Assembly (NCBI GenBank): GCA_023428915.1 | Contig: JAEYWL010000046.1 | Span: 3-64,002, forward strand | Origin: Verrucomicrobiota bacterium | GTDB taxonomy: Bacteria; Chlamydiota; Chlamydiia; Chlamydiales; JAEYWL01 | Length of the DNA stretch: 64,000 nt | Direction of reading: 5' to 3' | Shown here: in pieces, positions 35,872-39,973 of the stretch | Layout of the letters: the number at the start of each line of letters is the position of its first letter | Position numbering within the stretch: the stretch's first letter is position 1 | The notes under the pieces: model-generated | Database searches by the model: none | What the model was told of the DNA's origin: nothing | Seen by the model: only the letters and a program-made list of their open reading frames with translations | Made by a program: the position numbers and the translations under genes

Positions 35872-35985
35872 TTAAAAATATTTTTTATTTTTCTTGTGTA
35901 GTTAAAAAGAAATCTGTAAAAGCTGGCGACGCAGAACGTGAACAGATATTAGCGATCTGTAACAATCTTTTATCCAGGAGAAATT
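35872..35985 (+). promoter_or_regulatory. Conserved leader/promoter, copy 1, of the duplicated secreted-protein cassette
   Basis: A ~114-bp stretch nearly identical to 37269-37383. It contains the hairpin acagat-attagcg-atctgt, a repeated atctgtaa, and the RBS ccaggag. Confidence 0.55.
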
Positions 35986-36298
35986 ATGAAATTTATAGCA
36001 ATGTTTTTTGCAGTACTAAGCGTATTATCTAGCCAAGTTGTTGAGCGCTAATGAGAAAATACCTCATTACACCGATCCAGGTTATGGAAAAGTCTATGTG
36101 CAGCCAGAAGATATTTATATTCAAGCAAACGGTGTTTTTTATAGAGATTTGACTGGGGCTGTAGTACCAGCACAAGTAGTGGCTTCAGACACCTTTGGAA
36201 TTTATATAATTACCGAATATTATAGATGTCCAGCATGCGGTTGGGCAAATAATAATAATGTTTGTATCAATAAAAATTGCTCTATGTATGGAAAATAA
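35986..36298 (+). pseudogene. Small 4-Cys secreted protein, copy 1, with frameshifted signal peptide
   Basis: The ATG at 35986 encodes MKFIAMFFAVLSVLSSQVVER*. Copy 1 has one extra nucleotide relative to copy 2 (caagttgttgagcgct versus caagttttgagtgct). The mature part then continues in another frame, which is the track ORF 36038-36298 starting at TTG. Confidence 0.6.
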
Positions 36299-36300
36299 AG

Positions 36301-37263
36301 ATGATTCGAAGTGTTTGCTTGTTGCTTTTAAGCATTTTTTTTATTTCTTGTAAGAAAGAGATTTCAAACACTACTGTCAATAAGATGCAGATAATGTTAC
36401 AGACATTGTCTGCATCTGATAGAAGTGCTCTTGATAGATTTTGGGGACATCTAATCCATGATTATAATTATGCCTATACATTATTTGGAGATAAGCCAAT
36501 TTCTTTAGCATCTTATTCCTTAAAGCCAAATGCGCATGCAACATATTATCCCGATGCTGATGTAGTATTCAGGGAAGGGTGGAAGACTTGGTGTTGTTGT
36601 ACCTCACAATTTGTAAGCAAGCAGTTTGTGCTTAAAAGAGATTTAGAAGAATGTGGCCATATTTATTTTTACCTGATTAACAAATCAGCTGTATTGAATA
36701 CGATTAAAAAATACTTGGTTGTATTTCAGCACCAACTTGGTCCAGAAATAGATGCAGCAACCCTCACCGAACAACTATGTGATCCCAATGGTAATCTTTT
36801 AGCAACTATAAAGAATAGCTCAGAGTTATATGGTATTTTACTAGGGTATGGGCAGGAAAATGCCTGGAAGTTTGGTCGTAAAGTCAATCTCTGTCACTTG
36901 ATTAATGTAAAAGCAAATCCCCCTTTGCAGGCTACAGTTGAGGGTTTGCTCAATCCCTTAGCAAAATACTTAGCTGAACTTTATAATTATTCCGGTAAAC
37001 AAAACGAAATTTTTTCAGAAGAAACCGAGATAGCTTTGGCTGAAGAGCTCAACACAATAATGGATCAACAAGCAGGTTGGGAGCTGTTAGATAGCGATTA
37101 TTTTTTAGATAAATTTATAGCACCTATGTATATGAGTTCTAAAGAAGGTTTGCAGCAGCCAACACAGGTGGATTTTGTGGCAATCAGAGAAAATATTCGC
37201 AAGCACTATCAGCAGGGTGACTTTCTTGAAGTTACCTTAAATCAATTTATGAATGATAATTGA
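36301..37263 (+). CDS. Putative lipoprotein, cassette copy 1 (about 320 aa), unknown function
   Basis: MIRSVCLLLLSIFFISCKKE contains a lipobox-like FISC. Paralogous to 37696-38655. Shared motifs YAYTLFGDKP and LYGILLGYGQENAWKFGRK. Confidence 0.7.
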   Translation: MIRSVCLLLLSIFFISCKKEISNTTVNKMQIMLQTLSASDRSALDRFWGHLIHDYNYAYTLFGDKPISLASYSLKPNAHATYYPDADVVFREGWKTWCCCTSQFVSKQFVLKRDLEECGHIYFYLINKSAVLNTIKKYLVVFQHQLGPEIDAATLTEQLCDPNGNLLATIKNSSELYGILLGYGQENAWKFGRKVNLCHLINVKANPPLQATVEGLLNPLAKYLAELYNYSGKQNEIFSEETEIALAEELNTIMDQQAGWELLDSDYFLDKFIAPMYMSSKEGLQQPTQVDFVAIRENIRKHYQQGDFLEVTLNQFMNDN

Positions 37264-37268
37264 TGACG

Positions 37269-37383: not shown

Positions 37384-37695
37384 ATGAAATACCTAGCAAT
37401 GTTTCTTGCAGTACTAAGCCTATTATCTAGCCAAGTTTTGAGTGCTAATGAGAAAATACCTCATTTCAGCGACCCTGGTTATGAAAAAATCTACGTTCAA
37501 CCTGAAGATATTTTTATTCAAGCAGACGGTATTTTTTATAGAGATTTAACGGGTACAGTAGTGCCTGCTCAAGTAGTGGCCTCAGACAACTTTGGAATTT
37601 ATATAGTAGCACAACGTTACCAATGCCCAGGATGTGGTAGATGGAATAATGACGGTGTTTGCTGGAATATTCTATGCCCACTATATGGTCAATAA
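37384..37695 (+). CDS. Small secreted protein with C-terminal CxxC-x8-C-x4-C motif (103 aa)
   Basis: Signal peptide MKYLAMFLAVLSLLSSQVLSA. C-terminal YQCPGCGRWNNDGVCWNILCPLYGQ. Confidence 0.7.
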   Translation: MKYLAMFLAVLSLLSSQVLSANEKIPHFSDPGYEKIYVQPEDIFIQADGIFYRDLTGTVVPAQVVASDNFGIYIVAQRYQCPGCGRWNNDGVCWNILCPLYGQ

Positions 37696-38655
37696 ATGAA
37701 TAATATTATTTTGTTTATGTTTCTTAGCTGTTTTTTTATTTCATGCAATAAGGAAATGCCAAAAACTACTAAGCAAAATAAGGCACAGGTATTGTTGCAA
37801 ACACTACCTGTGCAGGATAGAAAAATACTGGGTAATTTTTTTGAGTTATTGTTAGATGAGTATGACTATGCCTACACTTTATTTGGGGATAAACCAGTCT
37901 CTGTAGCTTGTTATGGGCTAAAGCCAAGGGTACACTCGATTTATAATCCGCATTCGGATGTAGTATTTAAGGAGGGATGGAAAACTTGGGATCGTTATTC
38001 ACATCAATTTGTAAGTAAACAATTTGTAATTAAAAAGAATATAGACAACAAGAGTGGCTTGGTTAGTATTTATCTTATTAATAAATCAGCAGTTTTAAAC
38101 ACAATTAAGGCTCATTCGGTCTTTTTTCAACATCATCTCGGTACAAAAATTGATGCAGAGGAACTTACAGAGGAACTGTGTCATCCAGATCATAATTTTT
38201 ATAACAGTCTAAATAACTCTGAATTGTATGGCATTTTATTAGGATATGGGCAGGAAAACGCCTGGAAGTTTGGGCGTAAAGTCGAGCTCTGCCACTTAAT
38301 CAATGCTAAAATGAACCCTCCGTTACTTGCCAAGGTCGAGATATTCCTCAATCCTCTCGCACAGCATATAGCTGCAGGTTATGGTTGTAAAAGAAACCAG
38401 TCTTTTCCAGAAGAATTTGAGGTAACCTTAGTGAAAGAGTACAATACATTAATCACTGAACAAGCAGGCTGGGAACTTGAGCAAAGCGACTACTTTTTAG
38501 ATAAGTTTATCGCACCAGTTTACATGAGTTCTAAAGAAGGTTTGCAGCAGCCAACACAGGTAGATTTTGCTGCTATCAGAGAAAACATTCGTAAGCACTA
38601 TCAACAAGGCGACTTTCTGGAAATTACCTTAAATCAATTTATGGATCCTCAATGA
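37696..38655 (+). CDS. Putative lipoprotein, cassette copy 2 (319 aa)
   Basis: MNNIILFMFLSCFFISCNKE. The ATG directly follows the upstream TAA. The C-terminal 60 aa are almost identical to copy 1. Confidence 0.7.
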   Translation: MNNIILFMFLSCFFISCNKEMPKTTKQNKAQVLLQTLPVQDRKILGNFFELLLDEYDYAYTLFGDKPVSVACYGLKPRVHSIYNPHSDVVFKEGWKTWDRYSHQFVSKQFVIKKNIDNKSGLVSIYLINKSAVLNTIKAHSVFFQHHLGTKIDAEELTEELCHPDHNFYNSLNNSELYGILLGYGQENAWKFGRKVELCHLINAKMNPPLLAKVEIFLNPLAQHIAAGYGCKRNQSFPEEFEVTLVKEYNTLITEQAGWELEQSDYFLDKFIAPVYMSSKEGLQQPTQVDFAAIRENIRKHYQQGDFLEITLNQFMDPQ

Positions 38656-39311
38656 GACGTTTTTTGTGTCTATTTCTATCTTTATCGGGTTTGTTGCTAG
38701 CTGAAGAAACTAAGCAAGAAACAATTAGCAGTGAAGAGGTGTCTTTTTACCGCGGCTATTTGTTATGGCAAGAGTATCTAAAAAAGCCTGGCATACAGTA
38801 CGACCTTGAGGAAGTAATGAAGGGGATGATGGCTGCTGAGAAAGAGATTCCGTTGCCGGATGAAAATGCCATGCTCGAAAAGATATTCATCTTTCAAAAA
38901 GTCCTCTACGAGAAGCAGAAAACTGATAATCTGGCGGCAGCTGAACGGTATTTGAAAACAATTGCTACTGAAAAAAATATTCAAGAAGTAGTTCCAAATA
39001 AGCTGTATTATAAGATAGTCTCTCATGGCTCTGGTAAACGAGTAGATGCCGATAGCACTCCAACAGTGTCTTACACCTTATTTACCTTTCCAAATGGTGA
39101 AGAGGAAGAGATGATCACTATGGATCCGCATCCCATCATTTTGGCTGATATTTTGCCTGGGGTTGCTCAAGGAGTGATTGGCATGCAAGAAGGAGAGGCG
39201 CGGGTGCTTTACATTCACCCCGATTTAGCTTACGGCACTTACGGAAAGGCTGAGCCCAATACACTTTTGATTGCCCAAATTACTCTTGTAAAAGTTGATA
39301 AGGTAAAATAA
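38652..39311 (+). CDS. Mip-like FKBP-type PPIase paralogue 1, degenerate active site
   Basis: Signal peptide, then an FKBP_N-like FYRGYLLWQEY. C-terminal FKBP-like PGVAQGVIGMQEGEARVLYIHPDLAYG. 4-nt overlap with the upstream gene. Confidence 0.7.
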   Translation: MRRFLCLFLSLSGLLLAEETKQETISSEEVSFYRGYLLWQEYLKKPGIQYDLEEVMKGMMAAEKEIPLPDENAMLEKIFIFQKVLYEKQKTDNLAAAERYLKTIATEKNIQEVVPNKLYYKIVSHGSGKRVDADSTPTVSYTLFTFPNGEEEEMITMDPHPIILADILPGVAQGVIGMQEGEARVLYIHPDLAYGTYGKAEPNTLLIAQITLVKVDKVK

Positions 39312-39973
39312 TGAAACAATTAGTTTTTGGGTTTCTATTCATTTCTTTGTCATTAGCAGCAGAAAGTTTACAAGAGATTGCCGCCAGCAAAGAGGTGTCT
39401 TTTTACCGCGGGTATTTGCTTTGGGAGGAATTTCGCAAGAGGTCCGAAATAAAATACGATTTTGCAGAGGTGATGCTGGGGGTGTTAGCTGGAGAAAAAG
39501 GGCTGGCATTGCCTTTAGATGAAAAGACGATGCGGGAAAAAATCTCTGCCTATCAAAAAGCGAACTTGGAGCGGTTGACAGTTGAAAATTTGGCAGCTTC
39601 GGAAGTTTATTTAAAGAAAATTGCAGCTGAAGAAAATATGCAAGAAATCGTTCCGGATAAGCTTTATTACAAAGTAACGGCACATGGGACCGGAAAGTCG
39701 GTGTTAGCGGGGTCTTCGCCGATCATGACGTATGCTATATTCATTATGTCAGATGGCAAAGAGGAAGAATGGGTGACTATAGATGAGCCTCGCAAGGTGC
39801 CTTTAAAAGAAGTCATTCCTGGTTTTGCCAAGGGGGTTGCCGGCATGCAAGAAAATGAAGAGCGCATACTGTATATTCATCCTGAGCTGGCCTACGGCAC
39901 CTCTCACAGAAAAATCGATCCCAATGCGCTCTTCATTATCAAAGTCGCCGTCAAGCAAACGATGCAGCTCTGA
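39311..39973 (+). CDS. Mip-like FKBP-type PPIase paralogue 2, degenerate active site
   Basis: Same architecture, with PGFAKGVAGMQENEERILYIHPELAYG. Its start overlaps the previous stop by 1 nt. Confidence 0.7.
   Translation: MKQLVFGFLFISLSLAAESLQEIAASKEVSFYRGYLLWEEFRKRSEIKYDFAEVMLGVLAGEKGLALPLDEKTMREKISAYQKANLERLTVENLAASEVYLKKIAAEENMQEIVPDKLYYKVTAHGTGKSVLAGSSPIMTYAIFIMSDGKEEEWVTIDEPRKVPLKEVIPGFAKGVAGMQENEERILYIHPELAYGTSHRKIDPNALFIIKVAVKQTMQL

Follow-up and report, generated by a model that had tools for sequence, protein, structure and literature searches.

A candidate exported gene pair of Chlamydiota, small-BIG, with Mip-like proteins as a frequent third partner

Introduction

OmcA and OmcB, the small and the large cysteine-rich envelope proteins of Chlamydia, are encoded side by side, and chaperones of the FkpA type serve envelope proteins in other bacteria. 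Mip of Chlamydia trachomatis is an envelope lipoprotein (cited in PMC2811131), and environmental chlamydiae encode many 'enigmatic' phylum-specific exported proteins (PMC2811131). Here we describe a locus in a stretch of 64,000 nucleotides (nt) of contig JAEYWL010000046.1 from assembly GCA_023428915.1 (the whole stretch is called the window), in which a pair of genes, a small gene and a larger gene named BIG, is present twice in tandem and is followed by two Mip-like genes, mipA and mipB. On the evidence of sequence and gene order, small-BIG is a Chlamydiota-specific two-gene module, and the Mip-like gene is its frequent third partner. We give an even chance to the reading that the region, arranged as (small-BIG)x2-(Mip)x2, is a Sec-exported accessory module of three parts which has its own FKBP-type chaperone and acts at the surface or the host interface.

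Organization of the cassette

All genes of the cassette are located on the plus strand. Unit 1 (35873-37263) contains a leader (35873-35985), small gene 1 and BIG1 (36301-37263, 320 amino acids (aa)), while unit 2 (37271-38655) contains a leader (37271-37383), small gene 2 (37384-37695, 103 aa) and BIG2 (37696-38655, 319 aa). The two units are direct repeats with an offset of 1392-1398 nt. They are followed by mipA (38652-39311, 219 aa) and its paralogue mipB (39311-39973, 220 aa). BIG1 starts 2 nt past the stop of small gene 1 and BIG2 at the base right after the stop of small gene 2, whereas the BIG2-mipA junction is an ATGA overlap and the mipA-mipB junction a 1-nt overlap (TAATG). No terminator-like site is found within the cassette except a weak 5-bp stem in BIG2 (37946-37959), and strong hairpins are located only 3' of mipB. 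The GC fraction is 0.35-0.40 inside the cassette against 0.45-0.48 in the flanks. The ratio of nonsynonymous to synonymous substitution rates (dN/dS) is 0.12-0.20 over the cassette genes, and because of these values the genes are taken to be under purifying selection.

An earlier note on this DNA had described the same layout, two tandem units running through overlapping junctions into two paralogous Mip-like genes, and it holds with the unit bounds as given here. The same note predicted export for all six products. N-terminal hydrophobic segments, which were judged by eye and by our own hydropathy heuristic here and in the homologues below, agree with predicted export; however, the frameshift in small gene 1 leaves no more than five intact exported products out of the six.

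The leader of unit 1 is 113 nt long and AT-rich and contains sigma-70-like hexamers together with AGGAG, a Shine-Dalgarno site. The leader of unit 2 is ~97% identical to it and carries a promoter-like TGAACA-16-AATAAT with a TG, which is a consensus match only. A riboswitch or small RNA in the leader was considered and rejected, since the Rfam search returned no family and the RNA fold of the unit-2 leader is ordinary (z = -0.11). Identity between the units is uneven: it is ~97% in the leader, 92% in the signal peptide and ~90% at the 3' end of BIG, while the gene bodies are 50-87% identical, for the most part 58-78%. This mosaic of high and low identity indicates that gene conversion between the copies is probably ongoing.

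Linkage and co-divergence of the partners

A scan of GTDB species genomes, seeded by two peptide patterns, yields 49 BIG loci, with more than one copy in several genomes. Most of these loci are labelled Chlamydiota (Parachlamydiales, Simkaniaceae, Rhabdochlamydia), about 12 bear the label Verrucomicrobiae or 'uncultured bacterium', and three that of Acidobacteria or Melainabacteria; none of the 49 loci recovered by the two patterns is titled Chlamydiaceae. Of the 49 loci, 42 have a gene of the small family beside BIG: in 35 it lies immediately upstream in the same orientation, in 5 the two genes are divergent and in 2 convergent. A Mip-like gene adjoins BIG in eight (5 downstream on the same strand, 3 convergent) and also in the metagenomic locus L053. 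In a rough neighbour-joining tree the Mip-linked BIGs are spread over several branches and do not form one clade. All-against-all clustering of the neighbours reveals no recurrent family besides the small and the Mip-like ones. Pairwise distances of small and BIG proteins are correlated (mirror-tree r = 0.53, a value reached in 0 of 2000 Mantel permutations). Because the distances correlate, the comparison shows a pair that has been inherited and duplicated as a unit, which is not a proof of binding. The small-BIG adjacency and this co-divergence bear out the co-conservation that the earlier note had proposed as a check.

BIG and an FKBP domain are naturally fused in P0194, a metagenomic protein of 437 aa composed of a signal peptide, BIG residues 12-295, a short linker and an FKBP_C domain. 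Its FKBP domain belongs to the same RILY[IV]HPDLAY subfamily as the BIG-linked Mip-likes. P0194 is not a simple read-through product, because the signal peptide of Mip and most of FKBP_N are missing. A 167-aa gene of the small family, with two zinc ribbons, is located directly upstream of it. At the level of gene linkage, the Mip-like neighbours and this fusion uphold the idea of a dedicated client and chaperone put forward in the earlier note.

The same data bear on the simplest alternative, namely that the genes are chance neighbours or decaying cargo of a mobile element without joint function. Such a reading would fit the frameshift in small gene 1, the palindromes on both flanks and the low GC. 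It is nevertheless close to refuted, because dN/dS is 0.12-0.20 and the small-BIG adjacency recurs in 42 of 49 loci; the adjacency is kept over dozens of distant metagenome-assembled genomes (MAGs), and a fusion protein exists.

Mip-like proteins

Like the periplasmic FKBP chaperone-isomerases FkpA and Mip (PDB 1Q6H and 1FD9; C. trachomatis Mip), MipA and MipB have a signal peptide, N-terminal helices of the dimerisation type, which in MipA are FKBP_N-like, and a C-terminal FKBP domain, whose active site in MipA and MipB is degenerate. The two proteins are 52% identical (dN/dS 0.12). Both exceed the Pfam gathering score for FKBP_C (31.2 bits for MipA and 41.5 bits for MipB, cut-off 21.1), so the Mip-like assignment made in the earlier note stands, whereas for FKBP_N MipA is above and MipB slightly below the cut-off (25.4 and 20.7 bits, cut-off 22). 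Among solved structures, FkpA of E. coli (E = 5e-9) and Mip of Legionella come closest.

However, these Pfam scores are low (31-41 bits), and the pocket residues D37, W59, F36 and F46 are replaced. Relative to human FKBP12, to which the alignment is uncertain near residues 30-50, the window proteins keep Y26 and Y82 but have D37 changed to E, F36 to E, F46 to H or R, W59 to V or F and F99 to A or I. D37 and W59 are also lost in eight of the nine other Mip-likes aligned (seven adjoining BIG); the ninth (L041) ends at a contig edge. Among all aligned full BIG-linked FKBP domains, D37 is absent, F, L or V is present at W59, and F36 and F46 are lost, while Y26 and Y82 are mostly retained in the aligned Mip-likes. 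A HMMER alignment to FkpA independently agrees with the loss of these pocket residues. Because key residues of the peptidyl-prolyl isomerase (PPIase) pocket are lost, we infer that the Mip-likes have weak or absent isomerase activity and may act as an FkpA-like holdase or scaffold.

MipA and MipB further differ from C. trachomatis Mip, which has a lipobox (PMC2811131), in that their signals lack the lipobox Cys and are of the signal peptidase I type (...GLLLAEE in MipA, ...SLAAES in MipB). They also differ from FkpA and Mip in that a single client family is linked to their lineage by gene order and, in one case, by fusion. Thus a Mip/FkpA lineage would have given up the canonical isomerase pocket and yet stayed linked to one client, which bears on how Mip-type virulence factors act.

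The BIG protein

BIG1 has a signal peptide, a lipobox (FISC) and an alpha/beta structure, and matches the family profile with E = 6e-79; BIG2 also carries the FISC lipobox, together with the motifs YTLFGDKP, INK, LYGILLGYGQENA and GDFLEITL. Their alpha/beta domain comprises ~270 residues, and the two copies are 64% identical (dN/dS 0.17). A word-indexed search finds 74 BIG homologues, among them one protein annotated as hypothetical in Protochlamydia sp. R18. An exhaustive profile search finds at least 2,146 cluster representatives (clusters at 50% identity) at E <= 1e-3, of which 901 reach E <= 1e-30. The family is multi-copy, with several paralogues per genome at 23-33% identity. Its conserved motifs are YTLFGDKP, INK, LGILLGYGxxNA and GDFLEITL, and its invariant residues are F63, G64, K66, N129, K130, G179, L181, G183, G185 and N188. 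The invariant polar residues D65, K66, N129, K130, Y184 and N188 suggest a putative pocket.

No relative of BIG is found in the libraries searched. Scans with Pfam, NCBIfam, PHROGs and PADLOC give nothing consistent, and the BIG profile against PDB sequences returns only a chance match of 14 residues to iota-carbonic anhydrase. The AlphaFold2 model is confident (predicted local distance difference test (pLDDT) 82.3, predicted TM-score (pTM) 0.78), and the best Foldseek matches of this model have E-values of 0.27 in PDB and 0.06 in BFVD, with TM < 0.2. Comparison by eye with motifs of kinases, NTases, macrodomains, PBPs and lysozymes gave none that fitted, and literature searches by accession and theme yielded no description of the family. 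The large protein is thus without a recognised family, as the earlier note had said, and judged against Pfam, NCBIfam, PHROGs, PADLOC, PDB and BFVD the small-BIG core appears to belong to no type of system described so far. BIG, which comprises at least 2,146 clusters and has neither a curated model nor a structural relative, is among the larger phylum-specific exported families, and its partners are now defined.

A hydrophobic N-terminal segment is present in 182 of 208 BIG homologues. The lipobox sites of the window copies, found by pattern match, are LSIFFISC followed by KKE in BIG1 and LSCFFISC followed by NKE in BIG2. However, a lipobox-like site occurs in only 20 of the 208 homologues (~10%). 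The term lipoprotein, used in the earlier note for the 320-aa product, therefore seems to fit the clade of the window but not the whole family. The window BIGs contain 4-6 Cys in ~290 mature residues and the family median is 3; BIG is accordingly not Cys-rich as far as its predicted sequences go.

The small protein and its cysteine knuckle

Small gene 2 encodes a signal peptide, a beta-hairpin-rich domain and a Cys knuckle (C81-x2-C84-x8-C93-x4-C98). The start codon of small gene 1 is the ATG at 35986; its signal-peptide reading frame (MKFIAMFFAVLSVLSSQVVER, 35986-36051) halts at 36051 as the result of a 1-nt insertion, an additional G at ~36040 (CAAGTTgTTGAG) which is absent from unit 2 and from the close relative L001 (GCA_048222815.1). 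The mature part is out of frame and forms an open reading frame (ORF) of 86 aa from TTG (36038-36298) without a signal peptide. The same insertion is present in small gene 1 of a separate Logan assembly of SRR13347294 (contig L056) and is therefore not an assembler artefact; this assembly may share reads with the window, so the fixation of the insertion is not proven thereby. The orthologue in L001 is intact (103 aa), and small gene 1 is probably a recent pseudogene. The two small genes are 70% identical in amino acid sequence (dN/dS 0.20).

Neither Pfam nor NCBIfam contains a match to the small protein. A single-sequence search with it finds two relatives, and the family was recovered throughout by a profile built from the neighbours of BIG. 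It has a beta-rich domain of ~45 residues (KxYxxPxxIxxxxxGIFxxxxG...LxxDxxGxY), in which Y37, D68 and G71 are near-invariant, and a hydrophobic N-terminal segment in 31 of 35 homologues. An AlphaFold2 model, built with database homologues, has six short strands (pLDDT 76.4). It has no fold match in PDB, and Foldseek gives only non-significant hits with E > 1 (CROP, choline-binding beta-hairpin repeats). The small four-Cys protein of the earlier note is accordingly, in Pfam, NCBIfam and PDB-fold searches, without a recognised family.

The closest described counterpart of its knuckle is the RanBP2/NZF zinc ribbon (PF00641), whose pattern many members of the family carry as W-x-C-x2-C-x3-N-x6-C-x2-C, or more closely W-x-C-P-x-C-G-x-x-N-x6-C-x2-C-G. 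PF00641 matches 6 of 25 members weakly (best E-value 1e-4), and no member checked reaches the Pfam cut-off (one scores 16.1 bits against 27). The window proteins differ from the ribbon by a Y in place of W and by their spacing: they read Y-x-C-x2-C-x8-C-x4-C and not W-x-C-x2-4-C-x3-N-x6-C-x2-C, and are without a Pfam match. The same spacing is present in the intact small homologue of Protochlamydia amoebophila UWE25. The family domain also follows a signal peptide, so that it is predicted to lie outside the cytoplasm. A search of PHROGs with small and BIG gave one weak match, on the knuckle, to a PHROG of unassigned function. Among 83 small-family sequences, 23 knuckles are RanBP2-like by a loose pattern, 8 are of the window type, 30 show CxxC...C alone, and in 22 the motif is missing. 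The window motif is thus best described as the C-terminal knuckle of a putative RanBP2/NZF-like zinc ribbon that is variable or absent across the family, and it is not the conserved core of the small family as the aligned members define it.

This distribution bears on the role that the earlier note had proposed, a core client and chaperone system for assembly of the disulfide-cross-linked outer membrane, with small and BIG as structural components folded by Mip-like PPIases. Predicted export signals on all products, the lipobox of the BIGs here, the gene linkage and the BIG-FKBP fusion speak for this proposal, and both the envelope service of FkpA-type chaperones in other bacteria and the envelope location of C. 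trachomatis Mip count in its favour. Yet the Cys knuckle is not conserved, and since it varies or is missing, a role in disulfide cross-linking of the envelope is argued against; the median Cys count of mature BIG is 3, and only ~10% of its homologues have a lipobox. The disulfide rationale is thus not supported. In addition, the family consists of divergent paralogues with frequent pseudogenes in place of one conserved orthologue, the two-pattern scan of GTDB gave no Chlamydiaceae-titled locus, and the PPIase residues of the Mip-likes are degenerate. We consider this proposal quite unlikely. The OmcA-OmcB pair resembles the window by analogy only, in that a small exported Cys protein is encoded beside a larger exported one: there is no sequence similarity, BIG is not rich in Cys, and the Cys residues of the small protein belong to a variable metal-knuckle motif.

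A chimera, the UWE25 pairs and host-directed alternatives

In L050 (5992-7221), which comes from a complete MAG of 3.12 Mb (CAVWGN010000001.1), a signal peptide and an N-terminal module of BIG are joined to a macrodomain of the bacterial-type poly(ADP-ribose) glycohydrolase (PARG). The N-module aligns over BIG residues 27-81 with an hhalign probability of 98.3%, and the macrodomain matches Pfam PF10021 (30.3 bits, cut-off 23.5) and T. curvata PARG (PDB 3SIG, E = 7e-8). The macrodomain is absent from the window BIGs, and only residues 27-81 of BIG are common to them and L050. Because L050 carries this part alone, BIG probably starts with a separable N-terminal module of ~55 residues which bears YTLFGDKP. 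The module occurs by itself in L050 only, apart from a fragmented pseudogene (L047). Substrates of PARG are expected inside cells and not in the periplasm, and for this reason the predicted export of PARG in L050 is a hint that it may be delivered to the host. For a chlamydial genome to encode an exported PARG is already unusual.

P. amoebophila UWE25 (L054, BX908798.2, 1739080-1752114) carries one intact and one decayed small-BIG pair, located 5 kb apart and flanked by an F-box/ankyrin protein and a giant leucine-rich repeat (LRR) protein. The intact pair is located at ~1,740,087-1,741,216 of BX908798.2. The UWE25 protein Q6MB73 (344 aa, 'RanBP2-type domain-containing' in UniProt) contains a remnant of the small-gene zinc ribbon and was considered as a small-BIG fusion; this was rejected, as the ribbon is in the BIG frame and the N-terminal part of small in another frame. 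The true start of its BIG is probably an internal Met (294 aa, as in other strains). No other small-BIG fusion is present among 263 proteins. Decayed copies are found in the window (small gene 1), in UWE25 and in L047.

These observations bring in the reading that small and BIG are host-directed effectors, which would pass through Sec and then be released, for example by type II secretion or in vesicles, to the inclusion or the host, with the N-module for targeting and the Mip-likes as secretion chaperones. The L050 chimera, the multi-copy, fast-diverging and patchy family, the UWE25 pairs between F-box/ankyrin and giant LRR proteins, and the RanBP2-like finger as a eukaryote-like motif are all in agreement with it. 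However, the chimera is a single case without a small-gene neighbour, and the lipobox of the window BIGs would tether them to the membrane. T-F is a ubiquitin-binding dipeptide of NZF fingers; the fingers of the small family lack it and have G-[YWHR]-x-N after the second Cys. Moreover, signal peptides are atypical of type III effectors, which dominate chlamydial host manipulation. Release to the host in this form is, on balance, unlikely.

Far less probable is a conflict system of the polymorphic-toxin type, in which BIG is a secreted toxin and small its inhibitor or immunity partner. A tightly coupled two-gene cassette with many divergent paralogues and flanking repeats might be read in this way, and the N-module can bear a different C-terminal enzyme. 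But nearly all BIG members share one C-terminal domain, both partners have signal peptides, neither PADLOC nor known toxin/immunity families give a match, and obligate intracellular chlamydiae have few competitors.

Weighing of the three-part module

Returning to the exported accessory module with its own chaperone, we envisage that small and BIG would be made in fixed proportion through translational coupling, exported through Sec and assembled into a complex outside the cytoplasm, where the Mip-likes, dedicated to BIG, may work as a holdase in the manner of FkpA or as a scaffold, and not as isomerases. The lipobox found here suggests an envelope location for the window proteins, while the PARG chimera, the expansion of paralogues and the neighbourhood suggest a possible contact with the host. 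Since the family is multi-copy, fast-diverging, patchy, often decayed and low in GC, with a mosaic relation between the cassette and L001, it behaves as an accessory, fast-evolving family would and not as a core envelope-assembly machine.

Several points weigh against this reading. With a Mip-like gene linked at roughly one of every six loci, the chaperone is not an obligatory part, and the BIG-FKBP fusion is known from one metagenomic contig only. Any co-duplicating genes are expected to show a mirror-tree correlation, whether or not their products bind, and the pocket-like invariant residues of BIG point to no nameable activity. The loss of the FKBP pocket is partly read from the uncertain alignment to FKBP12. 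Gene order, conservation, co-divergence, the fusion and sequence features are observed, whereas export, complex formation and the chaperone role are inferred from them.

A bolder version is tentative, and we would sooner expect it to fail than to hold: an undescribed Chlamydiota-specific exported machine in which BIG has a new fold, its N-module is a portable docking or targeting domain and the degenerate Mip is a dedicated escort. If true, the portable N-module and escort Mip would represent a new route for, or class of, Sec-dependent host-interface proteins in chlamydiae. An anonymous gene pair has in any case become a testable system of three components, with an intact pair in P. amoebophila UWE25, a cultivable model.

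Relation to L001, flanking elements and neighbouring genes

The window and L001 are unevenly diverged. BIG1 and BIG2 are ~100% identical between them (synonymous divergence (dS) 0.01), while in the small genes an exchange of segments between the copies has lowered the identity of the central parts to 82-86%. For the adjacent Glu/Leu dehydrogenase it is 97-98% at both ends and 81-90% along most of the gene (dS 0.58). This mosaic (34343-38400) points to a recent recombination or transfer event involving the cassette, or else to a chimeric metagenomic contig.

The two largest inverted repeats of the window flank the cassette. The one 3' of mipB (40080-40315), which forms the 3' boundary of the module, is a nested palindrome of 236 nt with 39-nt arms that are 95% complementary. 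Its RNA fold has -167.6 kcal/mol (z = -17) with inner hairpins at 40104-40163, 40151-40256 and 40181-40227, and Rfam gives no match to it. It probably either terminates transcription of both mipB and the convergent gene or is a MITE-like element (MITE, miniature inverted-repeat transposable element), and it could also be a structured RNA. The palindrome at the 5' boundary (35496-35724, 229 nt, 49-nt arms 90% complementary, fold z = -7.4) lies in the 563-nt gap preceding unit 1, and L001 lacks ~235 nt at this site. Outer parts of the surrounding element (35436-35488 and 35734-35800) are found again next to each other at 63776-63892, where the palindrome is missing, and in part at 51806-51837. 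The upstream palindrome therefore looks as if it had been inserted into a repeated intergenic element (35423-35800). A widespread MITE as the source of the palindromes was rejected, as an exact-match metagenome scan with the outer arm gave only chance matches of 20-25 nt. On the minus strand, 35628-35890 has a sub-threshold Rfam match to throat-1 RNA (26.1 bits, gathering score 124.4, E = 5.6e-4). This match shares sequence with the right arm of the upstream palindrome, whose hairpin is probably its cause.

Downstream of the cassette, the minus strand encodes a 214-aa protein without a Pfam match (40433-41077), which contains YYHVHHHFIPRY, putatively a histidine-triad-like motif (HxHxHxx). A HipA-like kinase toxin (41128-42381 minus; HipA_C, E = 1e-46) lies directly downstream of the cassette region, and a helix-turn-helix gene of the HipB/Xre type (42391-42705 minus) is located upstream of the HipA-like gene. 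Two giant ORFs of 1672 and 1648 aa (6234-11252 and 12869-17815, both plus) occupy a low-GC stretch (0.36-0.41); Pfam gives no meaningful match to them, the first having only a weak match to Fes1. At 30729-33469 on the minus strand, genes for a D-Ala-D-Ala ligase and a MurF-like Mur ligase overlap by 4 nt. An alpha/beta hydrolase gene is located upstream of this pair on the same strand, and the MurF-like protein has an unusually long hydrophobic N-terminal extension of ~150 aa.

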